A stretch of DNA of 58,062 nt. Source: a virus. The position numbers and the translations under genes are program-made. The stretch lies in the IMG/VR virus record IMGVR_UViG_3300045988_053840; one strand, written 5' to 3'. The notes beneath the pieces were generated by a model that worked only from the letters and a program-made list of their open reading frames with translations, had not been told where the DNA came from and searched no databases. Positions 13,013-58,062 of the stretch are shown one piece after another. Numbering within the stretch: position 1 is the stretch's first letter; the number at the start of each line of letters is the position of its first letter.

Positions 13013-13070
13013 AAAGACCACAACTACGACAAAGCGTAGAAGAGGTGGAGGTCGGAAAGGTCGTAGATAA
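12993..13070 (+). CDS. Possible 25-aa Arg/Thr-rich peptide (MARQTIKKTTTTTKRRRGGGRKGRR)
   Basis: Not in the ORF track because it is under 60 aa. ATG 12993 lies 8 nt after GAAGGAG, and its stop overlaps the next ATG (TAATG at 13068-13072). Confidence 0.3.
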   Translation: MARQTIKKTTTTTKRRRGGGRKGRR

Positions 13071-18270: not shown

Positions 18271-18579
18271 GTGGAACTATTTTCAACGGCGAGAGCCGCA
18301 CAGATACTTGATGTATCTACGATAACATTGAAGCGTTGGTATAAGTGGTATGAAGATGATAATTATAATAAGCCGAAAGGCTTAAAACTACCCGAATATA
18401 CCACAGATAATCGAGGAACAAGATTCTTCACAATGCTGGCTATACAACAGCTCGAAGATTTTAAAAACAAGCTGAAAACAGAATACCGAGGTTGTATGGC
18501 AGATTTCAATGCTGTTAATCAGTGGGGACAGCGTGGAACTAAAATCATGGAAAATAAGGAGAAGAAAGCCAATGAGTAG
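18271..18579 (+). CDS. MerR/excisionase-type HTH protein
   Basis: GTG start 8 nt after AGGAGG. ARAAQILDVSTITLKRWYKW is a typical N-terminal HTH. Confidence 0.5.
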   Translation: MELFSTARAAQILDVSTITLKRWYKWYEDDNYNKPKGLKLPEYTTDNRGTRFFTMLAIQQLEDFKNKLKTEYRGCMADFNAVNQWGQRGTKIMENKEKKANE

Positions 18580-19578: not shown

Positions 19579-19607
19579 TTGTAAAATAATTGTGTGTATG
19601 TTATAAT
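19579..19607 (+). promoter_or_regulatory. Promoter with extended -10 (TTGTAA-17-TGtTATAAT) upstream of replication genes
   Basis: TTGTAA at 19579-19584, TG at 19599-19600, TATAAT at 19602-19607. Confidence 0.55.
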
Positions 19608-19760
19608 ATATTTGCGAGGTAGAATAAAACAAAAAATTTAATAATACAAGATTTATCCTTGTTATATGTGGGTGTACCTTAGTACACACAGTTATTTTAA
19701 TTTCTATCTCGCAAATATAAATTAAAATAAGGTACACCGACATATAACAAGGATTTTTTA
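19607..19760 (+). promoter_or_regulatory. Structured leader / possible origin element with two interleaved long inverted repeats
   Basis: Helix A is 19607-19624 with 19702-19719 (18 bp, one G-U). Helix B is 19655-19678 with 19731-19754 (24 bp, one mismatch), followed by TTTTTT. Confidence 0.5.
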
Positions 19761-19777
19761 ATGCTATGGAGGTTTTT

Positions 19778-20566
19778 ATGTCTGTTATAAGAGTAGAAAA
19801 AACAAAGAATTATACAGTGATAAGCAATTATCATTTTAAGGAAAAGGAAATGTCCTTGAAAGCTAAAGGGTTGCTATCCTTAATGCTTTCACTTCCTGAT
19901 AACTGGGATTACTCAATAGCTGGGTTAGTTGCAATATGCAAAGAGAATGAAACAGCTATTAAATCAGCTTTAAAAGAATTACAGCAATTCGGTTATGTTA
20001 AAGTTGATAAGATAATGCCAGATAAAACTGATTCGGGTAGGATTGAATATATCTATAACATTTATGAACAACCAAAACAAGACGATAAAAAACAAGGTGT
20101 AGAAAATCTACCCCTAGAAATTCAACATGTAGAAAATCACACACAATTAAATACTAAAGAACAAAATACTTATAAATTAAATACTAAAGATAATATTAAA
20201 AAAATTTCAAAAAAAGCTGATACTTCTAAAATCATTATAGATACTTGTTTAAAAAATGATATAGAAGATGATGCAAGTATAGAGATTATAGAACAGTTTT
20301 TGATGGATAATCGAATTAAGATTAAAGGAGCTATAGAAGCTAATATTGCTAAGATTGCAGGCAAGTCTTATAACATCATTAAAAGATGTATAGACCTTGC
20401 CTATGCAAGAAATTATAAATACATACCTGACCCGAGCTGGCTTGATAATAACAGCAATACAGTATCTAAAGGATTGAGGCTTGAAGATAGTACAACAACA
20501 GAAGCTGGACGAGAGCAGTTCAGACAGATGATACAGAATAATGACCCAAGATTACAGCATTTTTAA
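19778..20566 (+). CDS. Replisome organiser / replication initiator (DnaD-like, N-terminal winged helix)
   Basis: ORF track 19766..20566; ATG 19778 follows GGAGG. VIRVEKTKNYTVISNYHFKEKEMSLKAKGLLSLMLSLPDNWDYSI is typical of phage replication-initiator N-terminal domains. Confidence 0.6.
   Translation: MSVIRVEKTKNYTVISNYHFKEKEMSLKAKGLLSLMLSLPDNWDYSIAGLVAICKENETAIKSALKELQQFGYVKVDKIMPDKTDSGRIEYIYNIYEQPKQDDKKQGVENLPLEIQHVENHTQLNTKEQNTYKLNTKDNIKKISKKADTSKIIIDTCLKNDIEDDASIEIIEQFLMDNRIKIKGAIEANIAKIAGKSYNIIKRCIDLAYARNYKYIPDPSWLDNNSNTVSKGLRLEDSTTTEAGREQFRQMIQNNDPRLQHF
20098..20190. repeat. Two pairs of 30-bp-phased direct repeats inside the organiser gene (candidate origin iterons)
   Basis: tgtagaaaatc occurs at 20098 and 20128. 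aattaaatactaaaga occurs at 20145 and 20175. Confidence 0.45.
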
Positions 20567-20581
20567 AAAGGAGGATTATAT

Positions 20582-20941
20582 ATGCCATATACAGGAACTT
20601 ACAAGCATAAGGATGAAGAACGCTTGAAAGAAGTAATATTAAGCCTTATACCTAATGAGCCTTATAACATTGGTTCAAAGCAGTTAGCCAGTTATACAGG
20701 CTTAAAATCAAGAGATGTTCGATTATTAATACAGAAGCTAAGAGATGATGGAAATCCTATATGTGCCACACCACAGGACGGATATTGGATAGCAAGAACA
20801 AGTGATGATATGAAAGAGACTCTTGCTAAAATGAAATCACATATATCCAACTGTAAGGATACATATAATGCTCTTATTACATGTCAAAATCAGTTGAAAC
20901 AGCAGGAGGGCAATAATGAATATTCAGAACTGTTGGTATAA
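20582..20941 (+). CDS. Winged-helix DNA-binding protein (HTH_11/DeoR-like)
   Basis: GSKQLASYTGLKSRDVRLLIQKLRDDGNPICATPQDGYWIA. Confidence 0.45.
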   Translation: MPYTGTYKHKDEERLKEVILSLIPNEPYNIGSKQLASYTGLKSRDVRLLIQKLRDDGNPICATPQDGYWIARTSDDMKETLAKMKSHISNCKDTYNALITCQNQLKQQEGNNEYSELLV

Positions 20942-24702: not shown

Positions 24703-24707
24703 AATAT

Positions 24708-24779
24708 AGCCCTTTCGCCAAGTGGTAAGGCACGAGATTTTGCTTCTCGCATCCGTTGGTTCGAATCCAACAAGGGCTG
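24708..24779 (+). tRNA. tRNA-Gln (anticodon TTG), no encoded CCA
   Basis: Manual fold: acceptor agccctt/aagggct, D arm gcc-aagtggtaa-ggc, anticodon arm cgaga-ttTTGct-tctcg, T arm gttgg-ttcgaat-ccaac. The D loop matches bacterial tRNA-Gln. Confidence 0.8.
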
Positions 24780-24845
24780 TTTATAAGATATTAAATCTTA
24801 TAAGAAACTAAAAACACTAAAAACATTTAAGAAAGGAATTAAAAC

Positions 24846-25851: not shown

Positions 25852-28116
25852 ATGGCTTTATCATTTGCAAGACCAAAAAACAATGATAAGAGTATAGTTC
25901 AGAAGTCTAAAACAATAACTAATAGAACAAGTATAAGGGGCGGCGGTGGTAATAACATTGCCGCTCAAATACAGTCTATAGTGGCTATTGCTAACCAAAA
26001 ATTGGCAATACATAATGATGACTATATTCTTATTAGAGAACCTGACCAGTTATATGAGTATATGAAAGAAATGAAACAGGTCGGGGAGGGTGCGTTAGAT
26101 ACAGAAGCAACAGGATTAAATCCGTTACTTGTAGATATAGTAGGTGGTTGTATCTATACTCCAGGACAGAAAGCGGCTTATATTCCGATTAATCATAAAT
26201 CTTATATAACAGGTGTAAGAACTAAAGACCAGTTAGATGAACAGACAGTTTCTAAGATTATGAAAGATTTCTATAAGGATATCAGATGGATTTTTCATAA
26301 TGCTAAGTATGATATTCGTGTATGTAGAAAAACATTAGGAATTGATATTCCACCTTACTGGGATACAATGTTAGCGGCTTATTGTATAGATGAAGAAGAA
26401 AGTCACAGATTGAAAGACTTACATCTTAAATACTGCAATAGCAAAGATACTGAATCACTCACATTTGATTCTTTATTCAAAGGAGTTACATTTGACATTA
26501 TTCCAATATCAACTGGATATTTATATGCCGCAGGTGATGCTATAAAGACATATGAGTTATATGAGTATCAAAAAACAATATTAAATAGAAGAGTATTATC
26601 TGGTCCTTATAATGTATTTTGGAATATAGAAATGCCACTTATACCAGTTGTAGCGGATATGGAAGATAGAGGGGTATGTTTGGATTTTGATGTATGTAAA
26701 AATCTACATGAAAAATATCATAAGATAAGAGAAGAAAGACAAAAGCAAGCTGATGAAGCAATAGCAATGTATCAGAATGAAATTGATACTTATAAAATGA
26801 AAAATCCTAATAATAAGCTATCAGACCCCATATCATTATCAAGCCCCACTCAGCTTGCAATATTGTTCTATGATATTTTAGGATTAGAAAGTCCAGATAA
26901 GAAAGCACCAAGAGGAACAGGTGAAGATATTTTAAAACATTTTGCACAGGGCAAACATAAAGATTTATGTGAAGCTATCTTAGGAATGAGAAATGTTGAT
27001 AAGCTGTTAAGTACTTATATTGATAAGATGCCTGAAATTGCTCTTGAAGATGGACGAGTACATGCAAGTTATAATCAGTATGGTGCTAAGACAGGACGAT
27101 TCAGTTCACAAGACCCTAACCTACAGAATATTCCTTCACATAATAAGGAGATTAGACAGATGTTTAAGGCTCAAGACGGCTATGTGCTTATAGGTTCAGA
27201 TTTTAGTCAGCAAGAGCCAATGGTTACAGCTCATTTATCAGCCGATAAGAAGATGCAGGAAGCCTTTATAAATGGAAAAGATATCTATGCTACAATAGCG
27301 GCACTTGCTTTCCATAAGCCTTATGAAGAATGTAAAGAGTTCAGACCTGATGGAACAGTCAATCCAGCAGGTAAGGAAAGAAGAAGTCAAGCTAAAAGCA
27401 TTGTATTAGGTATCTTATATGGACGACAGATTCCTTCAATCGCAGAACAGCTTGGGGTATCTACCAAGGAAGCTCAAGCCATATATGATAAGGTTATAGC
27501 TTCATTTCCAGCCCTTGGAAAGTTCATTGAAGATTCACAGAACATGGCAAGAACTGAAGGCTATGTGACTACAGCTTGGGGCAGGAGAAGACATTTAAAG
27601 GATATGCAGTTAGAACCTTATGAATTTAGTTATAGCGGAAAAGTTACTAACTTTGACCCTCTAGCGTTTGGAAGTGAAGTATCTACAGAAGTTCCAAAAA
27701 AAGTAAAGGATAACTATACTAAACAGCTTCAAAAGGCTTTTGGTTGGAAAAAGAAAAATGATATAATTCAAAGTGCTTTAGCTCAAGGAATTAAGATTAA
27801 GGATAATGGTGGATATATAGCACAGGCAGAAAGACAATGTGTTAATGCAAGAGTACAAGGTTCTGCCGCAGATATAACGAAGCTGGTAATGATTGCAATA
27901 AACAATGATGAGAGAATGAAAGAGCTTGATTTTCATTTACTCATTCAGGTGCATGATGAGGTTATAGGTGAATGTCCTATTGAAAATGCAAAGGAAGCAG
28001 GAGAAAGACTTTCTTACTTAATGAGAACAGCCCCAACTCATTTGATTAGACTTCCATTTAAGTGTGATGTAGATTTTACAAATAATTGGTATGGTGAAGA
28101 AGTGGAGATTGAATAA
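25852..28116 (+). CDS. polA: Family A DNA polymerase with 3'-5' exonuclease domain
   Basis: Exo motif ALDTEATGL. Pol motifs DFSQQEP, RRSQAKSIVLGILYG and QVHDEV. Confidence 0.9.
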   Translation: MALSFARPKNNDKSIVQKSKTITNRTSIRGGGGNNIAAQIQSIVAIANQKLAIHNDDYILIREPDQLYEYMKEMKQVGEGALDTEATGLNPLLVDIVGGCIYTPGQKAAYIPINHKSYITGVRTKDQLDEQTVSKIMKDFYKDIRWIFHNAKYDIRVCRKTLGIDIPPYWDTMLAAYCIDEEESHRLKDLHLKYCNSKDTESLTFDSLFKGVTFDIIPISTGYLYAAGDAIKTYELYEYQKTILNRRVLSGPYNVFWNIEMPLIPVVADMEDRGVCLDFDVCKNLHEKYHKIREERQKQADEAIAMYQNEIDTYKMKNPNNKLSDPISLSSPTQLAILFYDILGLESPDKKAPRGTGEDILKHFAQGKHKDLCEAILGMRNVDKLLSTYIDKMPEIALEDGRVHASYNQYGAKTGRFSSQDPNLQNIPSHNKEIRQMFKAQDGYVLIGSDFSQQEPMVTAHLSADKKMQEAFINGKDIYATIAALAFHKPYEECKEFRPDGTVNPAGKERRSQAKSIVLGILYGRQIPSIAEQLGVSTKEAQAIYDKVIASFPALGKFIEDSQNMARTEGYVTTAWGRRRHLKDMQLEPYEFSYSGKVTNFDPLAFGSEVSTEVPKKVKDNYTKQLQKAFGWKKKNDIIQSALAQGIKIKDNGGYIAQAERQCVNARVQGSAADITKLVMIAINNDERMKELDFHLLIQVHDEVIGECPIENAKEAGERLSYLMRTAPTHLIRLPFKCDVDFTNNWYGEEVEIE

Positions 28117-29273
28117 TGGAATTGTATTTAGCTGGTGTGGATAGAAAACATCTAATTAACTCTAAAAATGAAAGATTGGATGATACATTATATTCCAATG
28201 CTTTATTTAGCTATCTTCAAAAGAATGATATAAATTCCTATATATATAATAGGAATAACTTATATGATATTACGACTGATTTATTGAATAATAAAGGATA
28301 TTTTTATAAAGCTATGAGATTATATTTAGTAGGAGCTGATAAATTTGGAAAGGAAGAAGTGAAACAGTATATGAAACTTTATTTAGCTGGGATGGAAGAA
28401 TCTTGTGTAGATAAGATTGATTGTAATGCTTTATTTAGTTATATTGACCAAGGCAAATTACAATTTGATAAACTTAAAGATTTTATTAAACCTGGAAAAT
28501 TATTTATTGATTCAGGAGCTTTTAGTGCATGGACAAAAGGAGCAAAAATAAATGTTAAGGAATATATCAACTGGTTGAATGAAAGGTCTGAAGATATTCA
28601 TTTATGTGGACAGGTAGATGTGATTCCAGGAGATAGAGTATTTGGAGCTACTCCTAAACAGGTTAGAGAAGCGGCAGAAGCTACATGGGATAATTACCTT
28701 TTTATGAGGAAACGATTGAAAAATCCAAAAGCTCTTCTATATACTTATCATGTAGGTGAACCTATTGAATTTTTAAAGCGTGCTTTAGAGTGGACAGATG
28801 AATCAGAGGAATATATTCCTTATATTGCTTTAGGTGGTATGGTTGGAAAACCGGCTAAAATAAGGGATGTGTTCCTTGAAAAATGTTTTAGGACAATTCG
28901 TGAATCTAATAATCCTAATATTAAAGTTCATGCATTTGGCATGACAGATTTTGAATTATTAGAAAAATATCCTATTTATTCCGCAGATAGCACCAGCTGG
29001 ATTATGGTTGGTGCTATGGGTAATGTTATGAGTGATTTTGGAAATATAGCAGTATCTAATAATCAAATCCATGATAAGAATCATTATAGCCATCTTCCTA
29101 AAAAGGCTATCGAAGATTTTAATAAGATAATTGATGAATTTGGATTCACTTTAGATGAATTAGCTGAACATAGGGATAATCGTATATTATTTAATGCATT
29201 ATATATGCAGAAAAAGATTCGAGAATTAAATACAAAAGACAGAAAATTTTCTTATAGAAAAAAACTTTTCTAA
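28116..29273 (+). CDS. dpdA: DpdA-like DNA guanine transglycosylase (TGT superfamily)
   Basis: The LFIDSGAFSAW motif and a TIM-barrel-like pattern, adjacent to queC/D/E and folE. The N-terminus carries three in-frame M-x-LYL-A/V-G starts (28116, 28314, 28371). Confidence 0.6.
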   Translation: MELYLAGVDRKHLINSKNERLDDTLYSNALFSYLQKNDINSYIYNRNNLYDITTDLLNNKGYFYKAMRLYLVGADKFGKEEVKQYMKLYLAGMEESCVDKIDCNALFSYIDQGKLQFDKLKDFIKPGKLFIDSGAFSAWTKGAKINVKEYINWLNERSEDIHLCGQVDVIPGDRVFGATPKQVREAAEATWDNYLFMRKRLKNPKALLYTYHVGEPIEFLKRALEWTDESEEYIPYIALGGMVGKPAKIRDVFLEKCFRTIRESNNPNIKVHAFGMTDFELLEKYPIYSADSTSWIMVGAMGNVMSDFGNIAVSNNQIHDKNHYSHLPKKAIEDFNKIIDEFGFTLDELAEHRDNRILFNALYMQKKIRELNTKDRKFSYRKKLF

Positions 29274-29279
29274 AATCAC

Positions 29280-29308
29280 TTGACATTTTTATTTGTATGT
29301 ATTACAAT
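29280..29308 (+). promoter_or_regulatory. Early promoter P4 (TTGACA-17-TACAAT)
   Basis: TTGACA at 29280-29285, TACAAT at 29303-29308. The downstream leader is identical to P1 (acaattacattaaggaaagga). Confidence 0.7.
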
Positions 29309-29340
29309 ACAATTACATTAAGGAAAGGAAGTTGATAAAT

Positions 29341-29859
29341 ATGTATGAATCAAAACGAGACAAGACTGTTCATGCCAGAATAATAAAAGAGGATACTGAA
29401 AGAAAAACAGTTATTATTGAATATCTCTCTGGAAATAAAAAAGGTAAAAATACTTGTATCACAACTTCTACTTTGAAGAGGTGGTGGAACAAGGTAGATG
29501 AAAAGATATTCTCAACATCAAAGAATTTAGAAAATAATCCTGAGAAGGAAATACACAAAAAGAAAACTACAAAAATTGACAGAACAAAAGATATAAAAAA
29601 GATAGTTGAAATGCTTGTTAATGACTATGAGTATAAATACTATGATTCTGTTAAATGTTATACAATTTATAGTCAGGGAACAGTTATTGCGGAGGTTTAT
29701 CCTCGTATAAAAAATATTGAAGTTCGTGTAAAAAAAGTAAAAGAAGATTTTGATTCGGATGTTTTTTATAAAGATGGATATAAGTATTATCTTCCCGTTC
29801 ATTATTATGTTTCTTATGAAACAGATTATATTAAAATTATTAAGGACCTTTTATCTTAA
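29341..29859 (+). CDS. Hypothetical Lys-rich protein between dpdA and the deaminase
   Basis: ORF track 29293..29859; ATG 29341 follows AAGGAAAGGAAG. Confidence 0.5.
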   Translation: MYESKRDKTVHARIIKEDTERKTVIIEYLSGNKKGKNTCITTSTLKRWWNKVDEKIFSTSKNLENNPEKEIHKKKTTKIDRTKDIKKIVEMLVNDYEYKYYDSVKCYTIYSQGTVIAEVYPRIKNIEVRVKKVKEDFDSDVFYKDGYKYYLPVHYYVSYETDYIKIIKDLLS

Positions 29860-29995
29860 TCTTTTAATGGCTGTGATACCTGACAGCTGAGGTCAATATT
29901 ATGGAAAGTGAGGAAACCACAATGAAAAAACCAAGAGCTCCTTCTTAATTATATAGTTATATTATGATTATATAATTGAGAAAGGAAAGTTGAAT

Positions 29996-30460
29996 ATGAA
30001 TAATAAAGAATATATGGATTTAGGCGTTGCAGAGGCTACTGTAACTATGCATCAGAATATAGGAGGTCCATTTGGAGCAGTTATTGTGAAGGATGGAGAG
30101 ATTATTTCTATTGCTAGCAATACAGTTCTTCAGGATAATGACCCAACAGCTCATGCAGAAATGAATGCTATTAGAAAAGCTTGTAAAAAATTAGGAACAT
30201 ATGATTTAACAGGATGTGAATTATATGCTACTGGATATCCTTGTCCTATGTGTTTATCTGCTATCATATGGGCTAATATCAAAAAAGTGTATTATTGTAA
30301 TAATGTGGAACAGGCCGAGGAGATAGGTTTTCGTGATGATTTTATCTATGATTATATAAGGAATGGAAATCCGAAAGTATTAGATTTAGAATCTTGTACA
30401 ACAGGAAAGGGTTTAGATTTATATAATCAGTATGTAGCAATGAATAAGGTTATTTATTAG
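29996..30460 (+). CDS. CDA-fold deaminase, guanine deaminase (GuaD)-type
   Basis: GGPFGAVIVKDGEII...NDPTAHAEMNAIRKACKKLG...PCPMCLSAIIWANIKKVYY...GFRDDFIY tracks B. subtilis GuaD closely, as remembered. Confidence 0.7.
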   Translation: MNNKEYMDLGVAEATVTMHQNIGGPFGAVIVKDGEIISIASNTVLQDNDPTAHAEMNAIRKACKKLGTYDLTGCELYATGYPCPMCLSAIIWANIKKVYYCNNVEQAEEIGFRDDFIYDYIRNGNPKVLDLESCTTGKGLDLYNQYVAMNKVIY

Positions 30461-30471
30461 GAGGATTATTA

Positions 30472-31176
30472 ATGAAAGCCTTGGTATTAAATTCAGGTGG
30501 TGTAGATTCAACAACATGTGTTGCAATAGCTGTAGATAAATATGGCAAGGATAATGTTATAACAGCTTCTTTATATTATGGTCAGAAGCACGATAAAGAA
30601 TTACAGTGTGCTAAGAAGATAGCAGAATATTATGGTGTTAGACATATTGAAGAAGATATATCTAATGTAATGAAATATGCTGGACAGGTATGCTCACTTG
30701 TTAAGGGTTCTAAGGATGAAATCTTAGATATGAGTTATGCAGACCAGATTAAGCAGAATGGAGAAGGAAGAGTTGGTACTTATGTACCTTTCAGAAATGG
30801 ATTATTACTCTCCATTGCAACTGCTTTTGCAGATAGTTTATTTCCAGGTGAAGAAGTAGAAGTTTTCTATGGGGCTCATGCAGATGATGCCGCAGGAGAA
30901 GCTTACGCAGATTGTTCCCCAGAATTTGCAGATGCTATGGATAAAGCAATCAATATTGGAACTTATGGAAAAATCCATATCAACAGACCTCTCATTCACA
31001 TGAATAAAGCAGGTGTTGTAAAAACTGGATTAGATTTGAATGTTCCATATGAATTAACATGGAGTTGTTATCATGGAGGAGAAAAAGCTTGTGGTAAATG
31101 TGGTACATGTATAGATAGAAGACATGCTTTTGAAGCTAATGGTGTCAAAGACCCTATTGAATATGAGGAGCATTAA
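30472..31176 (+). CDS. queC: 7-cyano-7-deazaguanine (preQ0) synthase
   Basis: ALVLNSGGVDSTT PP-loop and C-terminal zinc site CGKCGTCIDR. Confidence 0.9.
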   Translation: MKALVLNSGGVDSTTCVAIAVDKYGKDNVITASLYYGQKHDKELQCAKKIAEYYGVRHIEEDISNVMKYAGQVCSLVKGSKDEILDMSYADQIKQNGEGRVGTYVPFRNGLLLSIATAFADSLFPGEEVEVFYGAHADDAAGEAYADCSPEFADAMDKAINIGTYGKIHINRPLIHMNKAGVVKTGLDLNVPYELTWSCYHGGEKACGKCGTCIDRRHAFEANGVKDPIEYEEH

Positions 31177-31286
31177 TGAGCTGTAAATTTGAGAATAAAA
31201 AAGATAAATTATTATATTGGGGCAGTTTGATTTTAAGAATACTTGCTCTTACATTATCAATGTATTTATATAGGAGGTTTGCTTAA
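31176..31286 (+). CDS. Possible 36-aa hydrophobic peptide between queC and queD
   Basis: ATG overlaps the queC stop (TAATG). MSCKFENKKDKLLYWGSLILRILALTLSMYLYRRFA; its stop lies 1 nt before the queD ATG. Under 60 aa, so absent from the track. Confidence 0.3.
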   Translation: MSCKFENKKDKLLYWGSLILRILALTLSMYLYRRFA

Positions 31287-31287
31287 T

Positions 31288-31638
31288 ATGTATTATGTAT
31301 CAAAAAGAATGGAAATAGCTGGGGCTCATCAGTTAAAATTACCTTATGAAAGTAAGTGTTCTAATCTTCATGGGCATAACTGGATAATAACTGTTCATTG
31401 CAAAGGTAAGGTTCTCACGGATTATGGAATGTTGGTAGATTTCAAACATATCAAAGAGGCAGTTCAAGAGAAATTAGACCACAAGTATATCAATGAGGTC
31501 ATAGACTTTAATCCTACAGCTGAAAACATGGCTAAATGGATATGTGATGAGGTTGATAAGATGTGTCCTATCCCTACCATTTGTTATAAGGTTGAAGTGC
31601 AGGAAAGTGAAGGAAACATAGCTGTATATGAAATTTGA
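31288..31638 (+). CDS. queD: 6-carboxy-5,6,7,8-tetrahydropterin synthase
   Basis: ORF track 31243..31638; ATG 31288 follows AGGAGG. EIAGAHQL...CSNLHGHNW motif. Confidence 0.85.
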   Translation: MYYVSKRMEIAGAHQLKLPYESKCSNLHGHNWIITVHCKGKVLTDYGMLVDFKHIKEAVQEKLDHKYINEVIDFNPTAENMAKWICDEVDKMCPIPTICYKVEVQESEGNIAVYEI

Positions 31639-31649
31639 GGAGGATTAAA

Positions 31650-32294
31650 ATGAAAGTAGTAGAAATATTTAAAAGCATTGATGGTGAAGGTAAGCGAGCT
31701 GGCTTACCTACCACCTTTATAAGATTATTTGGTTGTAATTTGAATTGTTCATACTGTGATACAAGATATGGATGTGAAGGAGAAGGATATTCAATCTTAA
31801 GCATTCCAGATATTGTTGCAACAGTAGAAAGATTCGGTATTCATTCAGTAACAATAACTGGTGGAGAACCTCTTGTACACCCAGGCATTAATAAACTTGT
31901 TGATATACTATTAGAAAAAGGTTACTGGGTTAATATTGAAACTAATGGTTCACAGTATATTGGAAAATTTCCAATAAATCCACTTCTATTCTTTACAATG
32001 GATTATAAATGTCCTTCAAGCGGTATGGAGAGTCATATGGATGTTCATAACTTTAGATTACTATCCAAAAATGATGTGCTTAAATTCGTTGTAGGCAGTC
32101 AGGAGGATTTGAATAAAGCACTACAAGTTATTGAAAAATATAATCCACAGGCACAGATATATTTCAGCCCAGTATTCGGTGAAATTGAACCTAAAGAAAT
32201 AGTACATTATCTATTAGAGCATAGGATGTATAATTGTAAAGTTCAGATTCAGTTACACAAGATTATATGGAATCCAAATGAAAGGGGTGTTTAA
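31650..32294 (+). CDS. queE: 7-carboxy-7-deazaguanine synthase (radical SAM)
   Basis: ORF track 31635..32294; ATG 31650 follows [41 protein letters not shown]. Confidence 0.85.
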
Positions 32295-32296
32295 TA

Positions 32297-32869
32297 ATGA
32301 TTGATAAGAATAGAATAGAGAAAGCAATCAAGGAAATATTAATTGCGTTAGGTGATGACCCAGATAGACCAGGACTTGTAGATACACCAAAAAGAGTGGC
32401 AAAGATGTATGAAGAAGTATTTGAAGGTATGAATTATACCAATGCAGAAATCGCAGATAAATTCTGCAAATGCTTTGATACAGATAATAATGATTTAGTT
32501 GTTGTACAGGATATTCCAATATTTAGTTATTGTGAACATCATTTAGCCCTTATGTATAACATGACGGTTTCTATTGCTTATATACCTAATGGCAAAGTAT
32601 TAGGATTAAGCAAGTTTGCTCGTATTGCTGATATGGTTGGAAAGCGATTACAGCTTCAGGAAAGAATAGGTTCAGATATTGCTGAGATTGTACAGATGGC
32701 AACTGGTTCAAACGATGTATTAGTAGTTGTACAAGGAGAACATAGCTGTATGACTGCAAGAGGTATTAAGAGTCGAGGAGCTAAAACCCGTACAGCTACA
32801 ATAAGAGGACAGTTTGAGAATAATGTGGATTTAAGAAAAGAAGCGTATTCTTTAATGAGTTTAAATTAA
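32297..32869 (+). CDS. folE: GTP cyclohydrolase I
   Basis: [16 protein letters not shown]...[11 protein letters not shown]...[23 protein letters not shown]. Confidence 0.9.
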
Positions 32870-38093: not shown

Positions 38094-39113
38094 ATGAGTA
38101 ATCTTGATTTAATTATAAAAGACTTAAATAAGAAAATGAAAGTAGGAAATATTCAACTAGGAGTAGATTTCCAGGAAGTACAGAAGATTCCTTTTTCATC
38201 ATGCAGATTAAATTATATGACATATGGAGGTATTCCAGTTGGAAGAATAGCCGAGTTTTACGGAGCAGATGGAAGTGGGAAGACAACTACCGCTATTGAT
38301 GTAGCTGGAAATGCTCAAAGAATGTTTCCAGATAAGAAGGTGTTGTTTGTAGATATTGAACACACTTTTGATTCTTGCTGGGCAACCAAGTTAGGATTGA
38401 ACTGTGATGATATAATCTATCTTGACCCAGATAGCATGGGAGCAGAAGAAGTCTTTAACATGATGATTGAGCTAATAGATAGTGGAGAAATAAGTCTATG
38501 CATATTAGATTCAATTGGTGCTATGGTGTCAATGCAAGCAAATGAAAAACAGATAGGGGAAAGAACATATGGTGGAGTGAGTATGGCACTCACTGAATTT
38601 ACTAAAAAGATAACCCCAGTTCTTTCAAGAACACAAACAACCTTCATTGGCATAAATCAGGCGAGAGATGATATGAATAGTCCTTATGGTGGAACTACTA
38701 CTACAGGTGGAAAATGCTGGAGGCATGGTTGTAGCACTCGTCTTGAATTTAGAAAAGGTAATTATATTGATGATAAAGGTAATAATCTTTCAAGAGCTTG
38801 TGAGAATCCTGCTGGAAATATAGTTAATGTAGCACTTATTAAATCTAAAGTATGTAGACCTGACAGAAAAGTAGGATTTTACACGCTTAAATATCTAGAA
38901 GGAATTGATTATATTTCTGATGCTGTTGATGTTGCGATTAAGTTAGGTCTTGTTAATCAAGCAGGAGCATGGTTCACATTAGTAGAACCAGAAACTGGAG
39001 AAGTTAAAGAGAAATTTCAAGGCAAGCCTAAACTGGTTGAATATTTAAGAGATAATACAGATGCTTATATGCAGTTATCTAATGATATTCAGACATTGTT
39101 AGAAACAGAATAG
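38094..39113 (+). CDS. recA: RecA-family recombinase
   Basis: GGIPVGRIAEFYGADGSGKTTTAID Walker A, ILDSIGAM Walker B, 339 aa. Confidence 0.75.
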   Translation: MSNLDLIIKDLNKKMKVGNIQLGVDFQEVQKIPFSSCRLNYMTYGGIPVGRIAEFYGADGSGKTTTAIDVAGNAQRMFPDKKVLFVDIEHTFDSCWATKLGLNCDDIIYLDPDSMGAEEVFNMMIELIDSGEISLCILDSIGAMVSMQANEKQIGERTYGGVSMALTEFTKKITPVLSRTQTTFIGINQARDDMNSPYGGTTTTGGKCWRHGCSTRLEFRKGNYIDDKGNNLSRACENPAGNIVNVALIKSKVCRPDRKVGFYTLKYLEGIDYISDAVDVAIKLGLVNQAGAWFTLVEPETGEVKEKFQGKPKLVEYLRDNTDAYMQLSNDIQTLLETE

Positions 39114-39160
39114 TTATCAACAATTTATTAAAGTTATCCACATTAAATTGTGGATAACTT
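39112..39160. repeat. Three DnaA-box-like 11-mers (AGTTATCAACA, AGTTATCCACA, TGTGGATAACT)
   Basis: Cores ttatcaaca 39114-39122, ttatccaca 39134-39142 and tgtggataa 39149-39157. The last two form the terminator stem. Confidence 0.7.
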
Positions 39161-39170
39161 TTTTATTTAT
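39131..39170 (+). terminator. Rho-independent terminator whose 12-bp stem is an inverted pair of perfect DnaA boxes
   Basis: aagttatccaca (39131-39142) pairs with tgtggataactt (39149-39160), followed by ttttatttat. Confidence 0.7.
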
Positions 39171-39185
39171 TTTAAATAAAATCAC

Positions 39186-39214
39186 TCGACATTTCTACTT
39201 ATATGTATTACAAT
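39186..39214 (+). promoter_or_regulatory. Early promoter P6 (TCGACA-17-TACAAT)
   Basis: TCGACA at 39186-39191, TACAAT at 39209-39214. Confidence 0.6.
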
Positions 39215-47413: not shown

Positions 47414-47923
47414 ATGACAAAAGAACAGGAACAGCTTGTAACAGATAATCATAATTTAATATATTATATTATAAATAATAAATATGGATTATCTACTGAA
47501 GAATATTATGATGTGTGTGCTATAGGTTTATGCAAGGCGACAATTACATATGACAGTTCAAAAGATGTAAAGTTTGCTACATATGCAGGAATATGTATAG
47601 AAAATGAAATCAAGCTAGAATTAAAAAAACAGAAAAAATATTCTGCTTCTGTGTATTCACTAGATAGGACATTCAATAATACATCAGATGGAACTGGGGA
47701 GATTTCATATATGGAAAATATAACAACAGGTTTATCTGCTTATGATGAGATACTTCCATATCAGTTAGATAAAGTATTAAATGCTAAGGAATATAAGCTC
47801 GTAGCTTTGACATTACAAGGTTATACACAGGTAGAAATCGGAAATATTATAGGAATATCACAGACTATGGTGAGCATGATGCTTTCTAAAATTAAACAGA
47901 AATTATTAAAAGGAGGAAAGTAA
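47414..47923 (+). CDS. Sigma-70-family RNA polymerase sigma factor (group 3 / sporulation-sigma-like)
   Basis: Region 2 YDVCAIGLCKATITYDSSKDVKFATYAGICIENEIK. Region 4 HTH LQGYTQVEIGNIIGISQTMVSMMLSKIKQKL. Confidence 0.8.
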   Translation: MTKEQEQLVTDNHNLIYYIINNKYGLSTEEYYDVCAIGLCKATITYDSSKDVKFATYAGICIENEIKLELKKQKKYSASVYSLDRTFNNTSDGTGEISYMENITTGLSAYDEILPYQLDKVLNAKEYKLVALTLQGYTQVEIGNIIGISQTMVSMMLSKIKQKLLKGGK

Positions 47924-48285
47924 TGTTAATATCAAAAGGAGATGTATATTGGGTGGATATGTCTAAGGTGTGGTCAGAATCGGACATACATGCACAGAAA
48001 GGCATGAGACCCTGTGTTATTATTAGCAATAACAAGAATAATGATAACAATTCAAGAGTTATTATAGTACCTTTGACAACTAAGGAGGATGATTTGCCAC
48101 AGCACACAATGATATGGATACACAATATTAAAAACTATGTTGTTCCAGAATGTATAACATCTATACCTAAAAACCTTTTAGGTAAAAAATATGGCTGGAT
48201 TAGTAGGAGAGCCTTTAAGTATGTTATTAAGGCGGTCAAGATTCAGTTGGGATTATGGGAAGGAGATAAGAATGAACGATATTAA
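47923..48285 (+). CDS. mazF: MazF/PemK-family endoribonuclease toxin-like protein
   Basis: KGDVYWVDMS...KGMRPCVIISNN...SRVIIVPLTTKEDDLPQHT matches the PemK/MazF signature. Its ATG overlaps the sigma stop (TAATG). Confidence 0.7.
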   Translation: MLISKGDVYWVDMSKVWSESDIHAQKGMRPCVIISNNKNNDNNSRVIIVPLTTKEDDLPQHTMIWIHNIKNYVVPECITSIPKNLLGKKYGWISRRAFKYVIKAVKIQLGLWEGDKNERY

Positions 48286-49838: not shown

Positions 49839-50078
49839 ATGAAAGGCGGGATAAATATAGACACTAAATCATTAATGTTTAAATTACAAAAAGCATTAAA
49901 AACAAAAGGAATAATACTATGTATTAATACAAATCAATTCTATTCTACAGAGCAAGATAGATATATAACAATGTATACTGTAGTAAGAAACAAGAAACAA
50001 TTAATAAGAACAGCTAGTCAGATACAAGTGATAAATAAATTACAGGAAATATGGGAAGAGGTGAAGAATAATGACTAA
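49839..50078 (+). CDS. Hypothetical protein
   Basis: 79-aa ORF with a weak RBS, first gene of the packaging unit. Confidence 0.35.
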   Translation: MKGGINIDTKSLMFKLQKALKTKGIILCINTNQFYSTEQDRYITMYTVVRNKKQLIRTASQIQVINKLQEIWEEVKNND

Positions 50079-50517
50079 AGAAACAGATAGAGAGAAAGAA
50101 GCTAAAAAACATCTAAATCAAAAACAAATAGCTTTTGCATTAAATTATACAGAGAATCATAACATAACTCAATCAGCTATTAGTGCAGGATATAGTAAGA
50201 AGACAGCAAGTGTACAAGGTTGCAATCTGTTAAAGAACACTAAGGTGCGAGAATATATAGATTCCATATTGGAAAGAATACAATCCGACAAGATAGCTAA
50301 TATTGAGGAAGTAATGGAATACCTCACGAGAGTAATGAGAGGTGAAGAGAAGGACAGCTTTGACATGGAACCATCATTACAGGAGAGAACCAAGGCGGCT
50401 AATGCTTTAGCTGATAGATTAGATAATAGAGCTAAGAAGCTGGAAATTAAAACAGCAGTTACTATTATAGATGATATTCCAGATGATGCTGAGGTAGAAG
50501 ATGATGAAGAAGATTAA
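50071..50517 (+). CDS. terS: Terminase small subunit
   Basis: LNQKQIAFALNYTENHNITQSAISAGYSKKTASVQGCNLLKNTKVREYI is a typical TerS HTH. Acidic tail. Confidence 0.8.
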   Translation: MTKETDREKEAKKHLNQKQIAFALNYTENHNITQSAISAGYSKKTASVQGCNLLKNTKVREYIDSILERIQSDKIANIEEVMEYLTRVMRGEEKDSFDMEPSLQERTKAANALADRLDNRAKKLEIKTAVTIIDDIPDDAEVEDDEED

Positions 50518-51766
50518 AGGTAAATCTTTAACTAACTGTATAGGTCCAGCTTTTTATTCTATTCATAATGATATTAAAAATGGTAAGCATACATATTATG
50601 ACTTAGAAGGTGGAAGAGGTTCCTTGAAGTCCTCTTTTGTCTCTGTAGAGATTGTGCATAATATGATGAAGCCAGAGAACAAGAAACAACATGCTGTTGT
50701 ATATAGAAAAGTAGGAGATACATTAGAGACCTCTGTATATGCTCAGATTGAATGGGCTATTGATAAATTGGGTGTATCACATTTATGGAAAATGACTAAA
50801 TCACCTATGAGAGCAGAATATCTTCCTACAGGACAAAGAATCATATTTAAAGGCTTAGACAAGGCTCAGAAATCTAAATCTATAAAAGTACCTTTTGGAT
50901 ATATAGCTTATCTGTGGTTCGAGGAGTTTGATGAGTTTGCTGGAGAGGAAGAAATAAGAAAAGTTCAACAGTCTGTTATCCGAGGCGGAAATAAGTTCAT
51001 TGTTTTTAAATCTATGAACCCACCTAAATCAAGAAATAACTGGGCTAATGACTTTATAGAAAAGGAGAAGCTAAGACCTGATACATTAGTATCTCATACA
51101 ACATACTTACAAGCTCCTAAAGAATGGCTAGGAAAGCAGTTTATAGATGATGCTGAATGGCTCAAGCTGGTTAATCCAAGAGCATACGAACATGAATACA
51201 TGGGTATACCTGTAGGCAATGGTACAGAAGTATTTGATAACCTTGAGATTAGAGAGATTACAGATAAAGAGATTGCTAAGTGGGATAAGTTGTATCGAGG
51301 AGTTGACTGGGGTTGGTATCCAGACCCGTTCCATTATGGTTGTATGTATTATGATAAGGCTAGAATGACATTATACATCTTTGAGGAATTTAGAACTAAT
51401 AAGATGAGTAATAGTGATACAGCACAGGTACTTAAAGATGATTTCAATGTAAGTCGTTATGATATAGTCACTTGTGATAGTGCAGAGGAAAAGTCTGTCA
51501 GTGATTATAGAGCATATGGCATTAATGCACGACCAGCGGAAAAAGGTCCAGGAAGTGTAAGATATGGAATGAAGTGGCTACAATCATTATTGAAGATTGT
51601 TATAGACCCAAGAAGATGCCCTGCGACCTCAGATGAGTTCAAAAAATATGAGTATGAGCTGGACAAGGAAGGAAACCCAACATCAGCATATCCAGACGCT
51701 AATAACCACAGCATTGATATGACACGATATGCAATGGAACCAGTATGGAGAAGGAAAGGAGCTTAA
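50501..51766 (+). CDS. terL: Terminase large subunit (PBSX-type, headful)
   Basis: LEGGRGSLKSSF Walker A-like motif, WFEEFDEF Walker B, C-terminal nuclease region. 421 aa. Confidence 0.85.
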   Translation: MMKKIKGKSLTNCIGPAFYSIHNDIKNGKHTYYDLEGGRGSLKSSFVSVEIVHNMMKPENKKQHAVVYRKVGDTLETSVYAQIEWAIDKLGVSHLWKMTKSPMRAEYLPTGQRIIFKGLDKAQKSKSIKVPFGYIAYLWFEEFDEFAGEEEIRKVQQSVIRGGNKFIVFKSMNPPKSRNNWANDFIEKEKLRPDTLVSHTTYLQAPKEWLGKQFIDDAEWLKLVNPRAYEHEYMGIPVGNGTEVFDNLEIREITDKEIAKWDKLYRGVDWGWYPDPFHYGCMYYDKARMTLYIFEEFRTNKMSNSDTAQVLKDDFNVSRYDIVTCDSAEEKSVSDYRAYGINARPAEKGPGSVRYGMKWLQSLLKIVIDPRRCPATSDEFKKYEYELDKEGNPTSAYPDANNHSIDMTRYAMEPVWRRKGA

Positions 51767-55264: not shown

Positions 55265-55303
55265 AAAAATAAGACCTACTCGATTATGAGTAGGTCTTTA
55301 TTA
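55263..55303. terminator. Bidirectional terminator between convergent genes
   Basis: aagacctactc (55271-55281) pairs with gagtaggtctt (55288-55298). An A tract lies upstream and a T-rich tract downstream. Confidence 0.75.
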
Positions 55304-55708
55304 TTACCAAGCTCTATCACCATTAAGAGCCACTCCAATAGATTCTGCATGTTTATCCGGAGCTGTTACAACATTATGATTATCACACACTCTTCTTCCT
55401 ATGTATCTTTCTGTAACACAAGCTATGGAAGTTAAATGCCTGCCGTCAGTAGTTTCAAATTCCAACTCAAATTTATAAAGATACTGTTTTTCTGGTGACA
55501 TATTTATTATCTTAATTAGTTTCGCTTTCTTATTTTCCAATGGTACTCCATATATTCTATGCCCTATATCAGTTATTATGTAATAATTACCTATTTCATA
55601 TTTAGGCTTTGAAGTATTCAACCATATGAACTGGTCAAGTAATTTCTTTCCTTTAGTATCCTCCTTTTCCATTAATTTCTGCAAAGTGTTTAATTCTGAT
55701 TTTGTCAT
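55304..55708 (-). CDS. Hypothetical protein: the only minus-strand gene, inserted in the head operon
   Basis: ORF track 55304..55744. ATG at 55708 (MTKSELNTLQKL...) lies 7 nt after AGGAGG on the minus strand. The gene has its own promoter and terminator. Confidence 0.6.
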   Translation of the reverse strand: MTKSELNTLQKLMEKEDTKGKKLLDQFIWLNTSKPKYEIGNYYIITDIGHRIYGVPLENKKAKLIKIINMSPEKQYLYKFELEFETTDGRHLTSIACVTERYIGRRVCDNHNVVTAPDKHAESIGVALNGDRAW

Positions 55709-55756
55709 ATAAAGACCTCCTATAATATGTATTAGATTACTCATATCCTATAATTT

Positions 55757-55785
55757 ATTATAACATATTGTAATACATAAATCAA
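55757..55785 (-). promoter_or_regulatory. Leftward promoter (TTGATT-17-TGtTATAAT) for the minus-strand gene
   Basis: On the minus strand: TTGATT (55785-55780), 17-nt spacer containing tatgtattacaata, TATAAT (55762-55757). Confidence 0.55.
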
Positions 55786-55789
55786 TAGA

Positions 55790-56034
55790 AGTTATCCACA
55801 ACTTCCAAAAAAGTTATCAACAAAAATAAAAGTTATTCACATAGTTATCAACATATTAACATAGTTATTAACATAAAATTGTTGATAACTTTTATTTTTG
55901 ATATAATTGTGGATAACTATGTTAGTAACTTGTTGATAACTATGTGGATAAGTCAAAAATGTGTATAACTTTTAAAAAATTGTTAATAACTTTGTTGATA
56001 ACTATTTACATTGTTGATAACTTTGTGTATAATA
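55790..56034. repeat. Array of 15 DnaA-box-like 11-mers (consensus AGTTATCMACA; 5 rightward, 10 leftward)
   Basis: Rightward cores at 55792, 55814, 55833, 55845, 55865. Leftward cores at 55880, 55908, 55920, 55931, 55943, 55960, 55981, 55993, 56012, 56024. Three are perfect TTATCCACA. Confidence 0.8.
56005..56033 (+). promoter_or_regulatory. Rightward promoter (TTTACA-17-TATAAT) for scaffold/capsid genes, overlapped by DnaA-box-like repeats
   Basis: TTTACA at 56005-56010, TATAAT at 56028-56033. Boxes at 56012-56020 and 56024-56032 lie in the spacer and -10. Confidence 0.5.
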
Positions 56035-56104
56035 CAAAATGTAAATAATCCATATTCCAGAAAGTGGAATTAAAAAAATATTTTAGATTAAAGGAGACAA
56101 CGAT

Positions 56105-56737
56105 ATGAAAAACATTTATGAAATCTTGAAGTCTTTTGGGCTTGAAGTTCCAGAGGACAAGAAAGCGGATTTTGACAAGATGCTTAATGAAAACTATAAG
56201 ACACAGGCAGAAGTCAATAATCTTAATGGTAAGCTAACTAAGGCAGAAAGTGAAAGGGATGCTTTACAAGTCAAGTATAATGATGATATTAAACAGCGTG
56301 ATACTGACCTTGCAGATTTAAAGCAGAAACTTGCTGATGCAGGAACTGATGCAGAAACATTAAAGAATCTTCAGACAGATTTTGATACCCTGAAGACCAA
56401 TTATGCTAATGCTCAGGCTGATTATCAGAAACAGCTTAATAAGCAGGCTTATGAGTTTGCTATTAAGGAAAAGACTAATGGCTTACAGTTTACAAGTAAC
56501 TCTGCTAAGAAAGCATTTTTAAGCGATGCTTTAGCAAAGAATCTTACTATGGACAATGGCAATATATTAGGCTTTGATGATTTTGTAAATGCTTATAAGG
56601 AGCAGGATGCAGGTGCATTTGTAGTAGAAACCACTACAGAAGAACCTAAGCCGCCCATGTTTGGTTCTAAGTCTACTAAGAAGGATGAACCTAGTCCTAA
56701 GGCAGATGAACCTAAAGAAAGACCATTAATTTGGTAA
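56105..56737 (+). CDS. Scaffolding protein (GP20-family-like)
   Basis: Coiled-coil Ala/Lys/Asp/Gln-rich 210-aa protein immediately before the capsid gene. Confidence 0.7.
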   Translation: MKNIYEILKSFGLEVPEDKKADFDKMLNENYKTQAEVNNLNGKLTKAESERDALQVKYNDDIKQRDTDLADLKQKLADAGTDAETLKNLQTDFDTLKTNYANAQADYQKQLNKQAYEFAIKEKTNGLQFTSNSAKKAFLSDALAKNLTMDNGNILGFDDFVNAYKEQDAGAFVVETTTEEPKPPMFGSKSTKKDEPSPKADEPKERPLIW

Positions 56738-56757: not shown

Positions 56758-57885
56758 ATGCCAAGAATTACATCATTAGAAGTATTACTTGACCCACAGG
56801 GTAAGATGCTTTTATCAGAAGCATACGATGGAGTTATTGAGAATGTGCAGAAAGCTACAATCTCAGGACAGTTAAAGAACACAGATTTATCTGGAGACCC
56901 AACAGCAGGCACAGTAGAAGCGAAGAGATTCGTTAATGCTAAGTCTAACGCCTATGGTACAGCCAGAGGAAAGGGTAAGGGTGAGCTTGTAAAAGGTAAG
57001 CCAGTAACAATTCCTATTGATACAGACCGAGAGTTTATTGAAGAAGTTGAACAGAAGGATGTATCCCTTTTAGGTGTTGATGGACTTATTACAAGAAGAA
57101 GTGCTAACCATGCAATGCAGATGGCTAATGAGCTTGATAGAGCTTTCTTTGCAGAGTGTGTTGCTAGTGGTACACAGTTTACACCATCTACAGAAGCAAC
57201 AGCAATCCAGGATATTATTGAGGAAGCTATTGTAACACTTGAAACACTCAAGAATGATTATATTGATGGTATTCCAAGAAATATGTTATCTGTAGAAGTT
57301 ACACCAGCAGTATATAGCAAGATGAGAAAGTACCTTGATGAGGTTGTTCATAACGCTAATGTTGACACAGCGGCTGAAACATTTGACAGATTTCATGGTG
57401 TTAGATTTATTTCAACAATCAACATGCCAGCAGGTTGTGACTTTATCGTTCAGGTTGATGGTTCTGTAGCACAGCCAGTAAGAAGTCAGGCATATTCAGC
57501 AGAAAAGATTCCAATGTCTGAGGCTTATGCTATTGAGTTATTCTTCTACTATGGTACTAAGGCAGTCACACCAGAAACAATCCTCTTCTACTCTGCTACA
57601 GGTACAATGACTGTTATTTCTAAGGCAGGCACAGAAACAGGTAAGACAGCTCTTACAGTTTCTCCAACTAAGACAGGCACTAACACATATTCTTATAAGA
57701 CAGCAGAATCCGTTGATGTTCCTAAGTTAGGGGCAACAGTAGAAGGATATACAGCTTGGAATGGTACAGATGAAATCACAGCCACAACAAACAATGATAT
57801 TGTTGTAGTTGAGCTTACAGCAACAGATTCTAAGGTTGTAAGAGCTGGTAAGACTAAAGTAACATCCAATGCGGATAGTGAATAA
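56758..57885 (+). CDS. Major capsid protein with C-terminal Ig-like domain
   Basis: 375 aa after the scaffold gene, with a strong RBS. The C-terminal about 90 aa is Thr/Val/Gly-rich and beta-like (TMTVISKAGTETGKTALTVSPTKTG...). Confidence 0.75.
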   Translation: MPRITSLEVLLDPQGKMLLSEAYDGVIENVQKATISGQLKNTDLSGDPTAGTVEAKRFVNAKSNAYGTARGKGKGELVKGKPVTIPIDTDREFIEEVEQKDVSLLGVDGLITRRSANHAMQMANELDRAFFAECVASGTQFTPSTEATAIQDIIEEAIVTLETLKNDYIDGIPRNMLSVEVTPAVYSKMRKYLDEVVHNANVDTAAETFDRFHGVRFISTINMPAGCDFIVQVDGSVAQPVRSQAYSAEKIPMSEAYAIELFFYYGTKAVTPETILFYSATGTMTVISKAGTETGKTALTVSPTKTGTNTYSYKTAESVDVPKLGATVEGYTAWNGTDEITATTNNDIVVVELTATDSKVVRAGKTKVTSNADSE

Positions 57886-57900: not shown

Positions 57901-58062
57901 ATGAGATTACAGCTAAATAGTGGTGTAATCTTGAATACCGACAATGAATCTTTAATTCAGCAGTACCTGAAATATGGTGCTGTTGAATATAAAGAGCCAG
58001 TGGAGGCTATTGTTGAAGAAGCACCTAAAACAGAAGATGTTGTTGAAGAAGCACCTAAAACA
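57901..58062 (+). CDS. 5' part of small ORF that runs off the window end and resumes at nt 60 after removing the overlap (63 aa in the circular genome)
   Basis: ATG 57901 follows AAGGAGG. There is no stop before 58062; the frame continues to TAG at 87-89. Confidence 0.55.
   Translation, partial: MRLQLNSGVILNTDNESLIQQYLKYGAVEYKEPVEAIVEEAPKTEDVVEEAPKT
58004..58062. repeat. Terminal direct repeat copy 2 (identical to 1..59)
   Basis: Direct read. Confidence 0.9.

Follow-up and report, generated by a model that had tools for sequence, protein, structure and literature searches.

The locus between the minor capsid and scaffold genes

The window considered here is the whole 58,062-nt stretch of the IMG/VR virus record IMGVR_UViG_3300045988_053840, a phage genome with 33% G+C in which the plus strand carries all genes except one. 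Its head module runs in the order TerS, TerL, portal, minor capsid protein 2, array region, scaffold and major capsid, and the array region, the largest non-coding gap in the genome, is the subject of this work. At 55790-56032 it holds 15 9-mers resembling the binding site of the bacterial replication initiator DnaA (DnaA box), the first five directed rightward and the next ten leftward. The locus comprises the following features.

55271-55298, bidirectional intrinsic terminator, closing the portal/minor-capsid unit ahead of the array region
55304-55708, minus strand, ORFan gene (134 amino acids, ATG at 55708), with the minor capsid gene to one side and the array to the other
55757-55785, minus strand, promoter-like site TTGATT-17-TATAAT with TG, leftward, for the ORFan
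55790-55873, plus strand, left sub-array of five boxes, 11-mers AGTTATNNACA at 55790, 55812, 55831, 55843 and 55863; cores at 55792 (TTATCCACA), 55814 (TTATCAACA), 55833 (TTATTCACA), 55845 (TTATCAACA) and 55865 (TTATTAACA)
55880-56034, minus strand, right sub-array of ten boxes, top strand TGTNNATAACT, all directed at the rightward promoter; cores at 55880, 55908 (perfect), 55920 (TTACTAACA, three mismatches, weak), 55931, 55943 (perfect), 55960 (TTATACACA), 55981 (TTATTAACA), 55993, 56012 and 56024 (TTATACACA, overlapping the -10)
56005-56033, plus strand, sigma-A-type promoter TTTACA-17-TATAAT, matching 11 of 12 consensus positions, opening the scaffold-capsid unit
56012-56020, minus strand, spacer box TGTTGATAA, flanked by the two hexamers (-35 and -10) of the scaffold promoter and better conserved than any other box in the array
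56055-56069, plus strand, hairpin TTCCA-GAAAG-TGGAA in the 5' untranslated region (5'UTR), ahead of the scaffold ribosome-binding site
56092-56096, scaffold ribosome-binding site AGGAG, the ATG being at 56105
56105-56737, plus strand, scaffold gene (Pfam Phage_scaffold)
56758-57885, plus strand, major capsid gene, whose protein has 171 relatives in IMG/VR

A first reading, made from the sequence only, had described the 15 boxes with their orientations and coordinates, as well as two divergent promoters, and each was found again where it had been placed (promoters at 56005-56033 and 55785-55757). The first box begins 5 bp upstream of the -35 of the leftward promoter, and a sixteenth TTATNNACA is present at 56040-56048 (TTATTTACA), just past the -10 of the rightward promoter. 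The start-to-start spacings of the boxes are 22, 19, 12, 20, 15, 28, 12, 11, 12, 17, 21, 12, 19, 12 and 16 bp. The same reading had put the array inside the head-gene operon, and this needs revision: the bidirectional terminator ends the upstream unit and the rightward promoter opens a new scaffold-capsid unit, so the array sits at an operon boundary.

The density of boxes is far above what simulation gives. Taking as a DnaA-box cluster at least three matches to TTWTNCACA or TTATCCACA (at most one mismatch) at a mean spacing below 100 bp, the array has 12 such boxes within 241 bp. The whole window contains 42 boxes with at most one mismatch, compared with 24 ± 4.6 in whole-window shuffles, and the densest 245 bp in 300 first-order Markov simulated genomes held at most 4. 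The array is, moreover, the sole clustered short direct repeat in the genome. Among its 15 boxes, three match TTATCCACA perfectly, nine differ from it at one position, two at two (TTATTAACA) and one at three. The proposal that the core is the DnaA consensus thus stands for the three perfect boxes, but the commonest core is TTATCAACA (7 of 15).

The repeats follow the grammar of DnaA boxes

Variation within the repeat is clearly confined to two positions. In 444 boxes collected from non-identical relatives, departures from TTATCCACA occurred at position 5 (44%) and position 6 (56%), as against 0-8% at positions 1-4 and 7-9, while in background chance matches of the same loci the mismatches were evenly spread over positions. 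The motif may therefore be written TTAT[C/A/T][C/A]ACA. Such conservation, specific to positions within the motif, led us to reject intrinsic curvature or an UP-element as the basis of the repeats. The two variable positions are indeed those that are degenerate in published DnaA boxes (TTATNCACA and TTATCNACA; PMC7561715; PMC1888806): the consensus TTWTNCACA of Escherichia coli has N at position 5 (PMC7561715), and in Thermoanaerobacter tengcongensis, which belongs to the Clostridia, the consensus established by experiment (TTATCNACA) has N at position 6 (PMC1888806). In addition, T. tengcongensis DnaA bound a probe containing TGTTGATAA in an electrophoretic mobility shift assay (PMC1888806). 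Perfect or near-perfect TTATCCACA boxes, six to seven in each, are found in the relatives L028-L033 and L059.

The flanks and the spacing are those of chromosomal clusters as well. Tandem AGTTATCMACA pairs were found in at least 120 bacterial loci across many phyla, where we estimate about 4 to be expected by chance. In a Lachnospiraceae locus (L140), such pairs flank dnaA and dnaN, both confirmed by Pfam; 13 boxes with AG flanks and a spacing of 11-13 bp lie upstream of dnaA, and TGTGGATAACT boxes reach up to a promoter-like site, the putative dnaA promoter. The sense-strand reading TGTGGATAACT relative to the promoter is common to the right sub-array of the phage and to this dnaA locus. Distances between neighbouring boxes peak at 11-12 and 19-22 bp in both phage arrays and bacterial clusters, in a bacterial sample biased by the search pattern, whose allowed range includes both peaks. 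The AG flank had been taken as a reason to suspect a phage protein of DnaA-like specificity; this rationale falls, since the flank is equally typical of bacterial chromosomal boxes. By contrast, the label of DnaA box given to the repeats is well supported: motif, variable positions, AG flank, spacing and head-to-tail arrangement all match chromosomal clusters, and by all sequence criteria applied the repeats would be DnaA boxes.

A box conserved inside the scaffold promoter

In relatives with and without the array alike, the scaffold promoter keeps its hexamers and a 16-17 bp spacer. The spacer box, by contrast, goes with the array: it occurs in fixed register, beginning 2-3 nt past the -35, in 39 of the 42 non-identical relatives that bear the array, and all six array-less relatives having the same promoter lack it. 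Two further array-bearing regions carry a degenerate copy. This box is always of the local type, namely TGTTGATAA, TGTGGATAA, TGTTAATAA, TGTGTATAA or TGTTTATAA (CC, CA, TA, AC or AA, respectively). A site inside the core promoter, conserved in register, is what an operator looks like, and a protein on the spacer box would exclude RNA polymerase while the upstream boxes would load cooperatively; the array is therefore read as an operator region. Four roles had been proposed for it from the sequence (DnaA-dependent origin, sponge, DnaA-gated capsid transcription, sites of a phage protein), and this distribution of the spacer box makes the third the best supported. That the array is a host-DnaA operator cluster controlling the scaffold/capsid promoter and the divergent ORFan promoter has about an even chance of being correct.

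The 5'UTR hairpin shows compensatory changes across relatives, array-less ones included (for example TTCCGGAAAGCGGAA in L003), and may be an element of stability or translational control.

A second site with boxes follows recA/uvsX.

39112-39214, plus strand, second box site, after recA/uvsX, with three perfect 11-mers in 39112-39159
39112-39122, single box of this site
39132-39142 and 39149-39159, inverted box pair, forming a terminator-like hairpin (39130-39161) followed by a T-run
39186-39214, plus strand, promoter TCGACA-17-TACAAT

This site is kept in about 20 relatives, where changes in one hairpin arm are matched in the other (CC/CC or CA/CA, with G-U wobble variants), which shows that part of the selection on it acts on RNA or DNA pairing.

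Conservation and replacement of the array among relatives

The array was expected to persist in syntenic relatives if it had a role, and it does so in most of them: among relatives with a capsid identity of about 60% or more, the slot between the minor capsid and scaffold genes mostly holds 6-14 boxes. Close relatives differ by insertions or deletions of whole box units, which also change the number of boxes in the left sub-array, and by substitutions at box positions 5 and 6. The array is missing from more distant relatives, from some relatives at 62-64% capsid identity (L051-L058), from the 85-kb contig L048 and from Blautia phage Montmirail. Array-less L048 and L051-L057 (about 60% capsid identity or above) retain the scaffold promoter, and L048, L051 and L057 the co-varying 5'UTR hairpin; in the more distant array-less relatives, no simple match to the scaffold promoter was found. 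Montmirail is the nearest cultured relative, and its intergenic region is 135 bp long, GC-rich and devoid of boxes, which leaves the array without a model in culture. A BLAST search of the array region against an annotated phage collection returned just three short matches, and a scan of a genome collection gave no copy of the phage. The weak similarity to the Blautia phage, together with sample names read as human-associated, hints at a host among the Lachnospiraceae or other Clostridia.

The minus-strand ORFan does not follow the array. The gene occurs in only 3 of 80 capsid-matched IMG/VR loci, its homologues being restricted to close relatives and bearing no names or domains; its rarity among array-bearing relatives indicates that the array is independent of it, and we rejected the array as a set of binding sites for its product on the same count. 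Pfam and PHROG searches with the protein gave no match, and its AlphaFold2 model (mean predicted local distance difference test score, pLDDT, of 54) was too poor for a fold search. The gene has the appearance of a moron, inserted next to the array and equipped with a promoter of its own.

Several observations weigh against host DnaA as the protein bound at the array. The relative L006 (= L274; 87% capsid identity) has, in the same slot (4985-5260), about eight copies of a palindromic repeat, TTGTATATACAA, instead of boxes, while retaining the scaffold promoter and the leader hairpin. At its second site after recA, both boxes of the hairpin have decayed with the pairing kept. The decay of these boxes alongside the swapped scaffold array links both loci to one trans-acting factor, and at least one member of the family thus uses another factor. 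Arrays are also often made of one variant throughout, all TTATTAACA (TA) in L035-L042 and all TTATCCACA (CC) in L028-L033, as would fit a co-evolving phage protein, yet local duplication can explain them. In E. coli, the cores TTATCAACA and TTATTAACA do not rank among the high-affinity boxes. Furthermore, the phage encodes a 7-deazaguanine DNA-modification set, which could alter those guanines of the boxes that DnaA contacts; guanines of the phage DNA, among them those opposite the boxes, may carry the modification, with a possible effect on protein binding. The counts over relatives, including those of the spacer box, are not phylogenetically independent.

Nature of the protein bound

The repeats might instead be operators for some protein other than DnaA, encoded by the phage or by the host, which has TTATNNACA-like specificity and represses or activates the scaffold/capsid promoter. 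The sequence-only reading had entertained such a phage protein and, deprived of the argument from the AG flank, the idea itself still deserves consideration, though it appears unlikely. The uniformity of variants within arrays and their difference between sub-clades (CC, CA, TA) are in line with it, as is L006, where the swap to a palindromic repeat and the loss of box identity at the recA site suggest a changeable trans-factor. Several small helix-turn-helix (HTH) proteins are indeed encoded (13070-13270, 18271-18579 and 20582-20941). Such a protein would nevertheless have to coincide exactly with the DnaA box in degenerate positions, AG flank and spacing grammar. Moreover, no open reading frame (ORF) resembling DnaA domain IV was found: Bac_DnaA_C had no Pfam match in a scan of the scaffold gene, the minus-strand ORF and the plus-strand ORFs at 12-55 kb, the tail genes at 1-12 kb lying outside it, and phmmer detected no similarity to DnaA domain IV in the six frames of the genome (best E-value 0.38).

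Known DNA-binding proteins of the phage do not track the motif either. The initiator-like protein is a case in point.

19766-20566, plus strand, HTH_36 initiator-like protein (Pfam)

Its N-terminal DNA-binding domain is of three types among relatives, each paired with several motif types: the type of the window is associated with CC/CA-mixed, CA/AC/AA and pure TA arrays, and the near-identical arrays L043 and L045 carry different initiator N-domains. Iterons of the phage initiator were rejected on this basis, the repeat sequence not co-varying with the N-domain types. MerR-like and 119-amino-acid winged helix-turn-helix (wHTH) proteins are likewise present regardless of a DnaA-type array. Spo0A boxes (TGTCGAA) were also rejected, by inspection, each repeat having two mismatches to them.

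Similar arrays in phages unrelated to this family also argue against a dedicated phage protein. Clostridioides difficile phage phiCD6356 has four boxes with 11-12 bp spacing at 27389-27436 (L001 4001-4048). Several unrelated IMG/VR contigs of viral origin, from a range of environments, each hold 8-12 boxes, most of them perfect, in intergenic position and without dnaA or dnaN nearby.

L372 1467-1800, array of an unrelated contig
L363 1714-2000, array of an unrelated contig
L353 5976-6250, array of an unrelated contig
L380 7889-8100, array of an unrelated contig
L402 1524-1760, array of an unrelated contig
L324 10080-10230, array of an unrelated contig

T5-like phages, too, conserve eight DnaA boxes, including TTATCAACA and TTATTAACA variants (bioRxiv 10.1101/866236). 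A factor common to all these hosts, DnaA, would therefore be the simplest explanation. Since unrelated viral contigs commonly carry dense DnaA-box arrays, the phenomenon probably extends beyond this family and has received too little study. As to the phiCD6356 boxes, they directly follow an HTH gene, near a ParA-like gene, and other direct repeats, AAAAAGTGGTG, come after them.

Origin, decoy and packaging site as alternatives

A DnaA-dependent replication origin of the phage was the first role proposed for the array; such an origin might be primary or secondary, with the adjacent strong promoter providing transcriptional activation. The density of boxes and the two opposed sub-arrays do resemble oriC, the array occupies the largest non-coding gap as the only clustered short repeat, and the dense arrays of other viral contigs look like early-region origins. 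The GC skew drops at about 54-57 kb, but this profile is uninformative because nearly all genes lie on one strand. An unwinding module was sought, defined as a GC cluster together with three or more NAN repeats (3'-GAT-5' type) within 0-16 bp on the downstream side of a box (PMC8287927). No such DnaA-trio/GC-cluster module follows any of the 16 boxes (no CTA-type trio run); the longest NTN runs beside boxes consist of A/T spacer or belong to the box that follows. With 65-95% A+T throughout the array region, no distinct AT-rich element stands out.

The phage, moreover, has replication functions of its own, namely the HTH_36 initiator-like protein, a DnaC/IstB-like loader, a DnaB helicase and a DnaG-type primase, to which are added a family A polymerase, a clamp loader and RecA/UvsX. 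The initiator gene is closely preceded by nested inverted repeats whose arms measure 17-28 nt (19582-19754), and four iteron-like 30-bp periodic repeats occur in its linker region (20088-20204). The phage's own origin is likelier to be found there, in the position where origins of this kind usually lie. Homologous structural or replication modules persist in relatives devoid of DnaA-type boxes (L006, L048, L051-L057, Montmirail), and an origin needs no box in a promoter spacer. Given the missing trio module, the phage's own initiator set and the replication genes kept by box-less relatives, we regard an origin at the array as quite unlikely, although it might serve as a secondary, DnaA-assisted one.

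A pure decoy, titrating host DnaA and stopping initiation on the host chromosome without any cis-regulatory role, would account for part of the observations: the layout resembles datA-like clusters, the number of copies is amplified during infection, and boxes of mixed strength are compatible with it. Such a sponge, the second role proposed, could however sit anywhere, and the fixed slot of the array and the spacer box in the promoter are left unexplained. The second box site likewise abuts a promoter, and the array-less relatives are evidently viable. As the sole function of the array, a decoy is thus very unlikely, while titration of DnaA is plausible as an accompaniment to promoter control.

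A packaging site (pac or cos) was rejected, the terminase genes being located elsewhere and the array being dispensable in relatives.

50071-51766, TerS and TerL

Proposed control of capsid synthesis by DnaA

From a mechanistic point of view, control of the scaffold/capsid promoter by a DnaA operator array may be pictured as follows; the sites, their enrichment, conservation, DnaA-box grammar and register in the promoter are observed, whereas the identity of the protein, the sign of the regulation and the titration timer are what we infer. DnaA would bind the stronger boxes, then spread cooperatively over head-to-tail boxes spaced 11-12 or ~21 bp, and would fill the box between the -35 and the -10, shutting out RNA polymerase. 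The scaffold/capsid unit would stay off as long as free DnaA exceeds phage DNA. Phage replication would then raise the number of boxes, with some 18 boxes per genome and tens to hundreds of copies. In model bacteria, a cell contains about 1,000 DnaA molecules. Total boxes might thus approach or exceed the supply of DnaA, which would be titrated, and the promoter would open. Capsid synthesis would in this way be coupled to genome copy number, with the side effect that the host origin would be starved of DnaA. We advance only tentatively this notion of host DnaA as a sensor of genome copy number, in which a filament would shut the capsid promoter early and titration would later switch capsid synthesis on; it would amount to a timer by initiator titration, taken over from chromosome biology to control late viral genes, and is a possibility to which we attach limited weight.

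Relation to known systems

Bacterial dnaA promoter and oriC1 clusters, such as those of Bacillus subtilis and clostridial oriC1 (PMC7561715), share several traits with the phage array: a 9-mer that is degenerate at the same positions, an AG flank and a head-to-tail spacing of 11-12 or ~21 bp. They also contain 9-19 boxes per cluster, abutting or overlapping a sigma-A promoter. DnaA represses the promoter at such clusters, and boxes 9-12 of T. tengcongensis overlap the dnaA promoter (PMC1888806). By contrast, the array described here belongs to an apparently virulent phage, lies upstream of scaffold/capsid genes with one box inside the promoter spacer, has no dnaA gene, partner oriC2 or DnaA-trio module, and is dominated by weak variants (position 6 = A). 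The datA locus of E. coli and the DnaA-box clusters of B. subtilis resemble it as non-origin clusters of boxes able to sequester the initiator; they are chromosomal and act on the timing of initiation, whereas the phage array is tied to a specific promoter and amplified by phage replication.

Control of phage promoters by host regulators has precedents. Phage phi29 is controlled by host Spo0A boxes, and the pR promoter of lambda is stimulated by DnaA. Sites for a host master regulator are thus placed at phage promoters, and development follows the state of the host, as may be the case here, but with another regulator or another sign, and neither phage has a 15-site array or a capsid-operon target. 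In cells, DnaA serves as the initiator and regulates the transcription of a handful of genes. Among phages, the documented instances of its use are mainly lambda and P1-type plasmid origins, the T5 case being an untested idea. In the searchable literature, we found no description of a DnaA-box array at a phage scaffold/capsid promoter. Clusters of DnaA boxes are known, as are phage promoters under the control of host regulators, and the array would combine the two.

Two further comparisons concern virulent phages and late expression. The injection-stop region of T5-like phages is similar to the array in that predicted, conserved DnaA boxes with TTATCAACA/TTATTAACA variants lie in non-coding DNA of a virulent phage (bioRxiv 10.1101/866236). 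The eight T5 boxes are, however, paired in inverted repeats within the terminal repeat, and the function proposed for them is the arrest of DNA injection, as opposed to the promoter control proposed here (bioRxiv 10.1101/866236). The T4 gp45 clamp, and MuC with the beta clamp in Mu, also tie late or structural expression to DNA replication (PMC12867686); these systems rely on activation by a sliding clamp, whereas the array would act through a repression relieved by titration of the initiator.

A whole clade of apparently virulent gut Firmicutes phages keeps a box array in fixed association with the promoter of what are presumably its most strongly expressed structural genes. If DnaA does bind there, this would offer a simple coupling of capsid production to genome replication or to the growth state of the host without a dedicated phage regulator, a route by which infection could shut off host replication initiation, and a natural test of the initiator-titration idea.

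Other features of the phage genome

The ends of the window repeat each other (1-59 = 58004-58062, in 30-nt units, TTGTTGAAGAAGCACCTAAAACA), which indicates that the genome is complete, with a length of about 58.0 kb (~58,003 bp), and either circular or circularly permuted. No integrase was present among the ORFs scanned, and the phage looks virulent. An Rfam scan gave nothing but one tRNA. The 7-deazaguanine DNA-modification set, complete at 28116-32869, and the remaining features are listed below.

28116-29273, DpdA-like transglycosylase
30472-31176, QueC
31243-31638, QueD
31635-32294, QueE
32297-32869, FolE
24707-24780, tRNA-Gln (anticodon TTG), between the primase gene and the next gene of the replication region
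47414-47923, phage sigma-70-family factor, upstream of the packaging genes
47923-48285, PemK/MazF-like toxin homologue, immediately after the sigma factor gene and just upstream of the packaging genes

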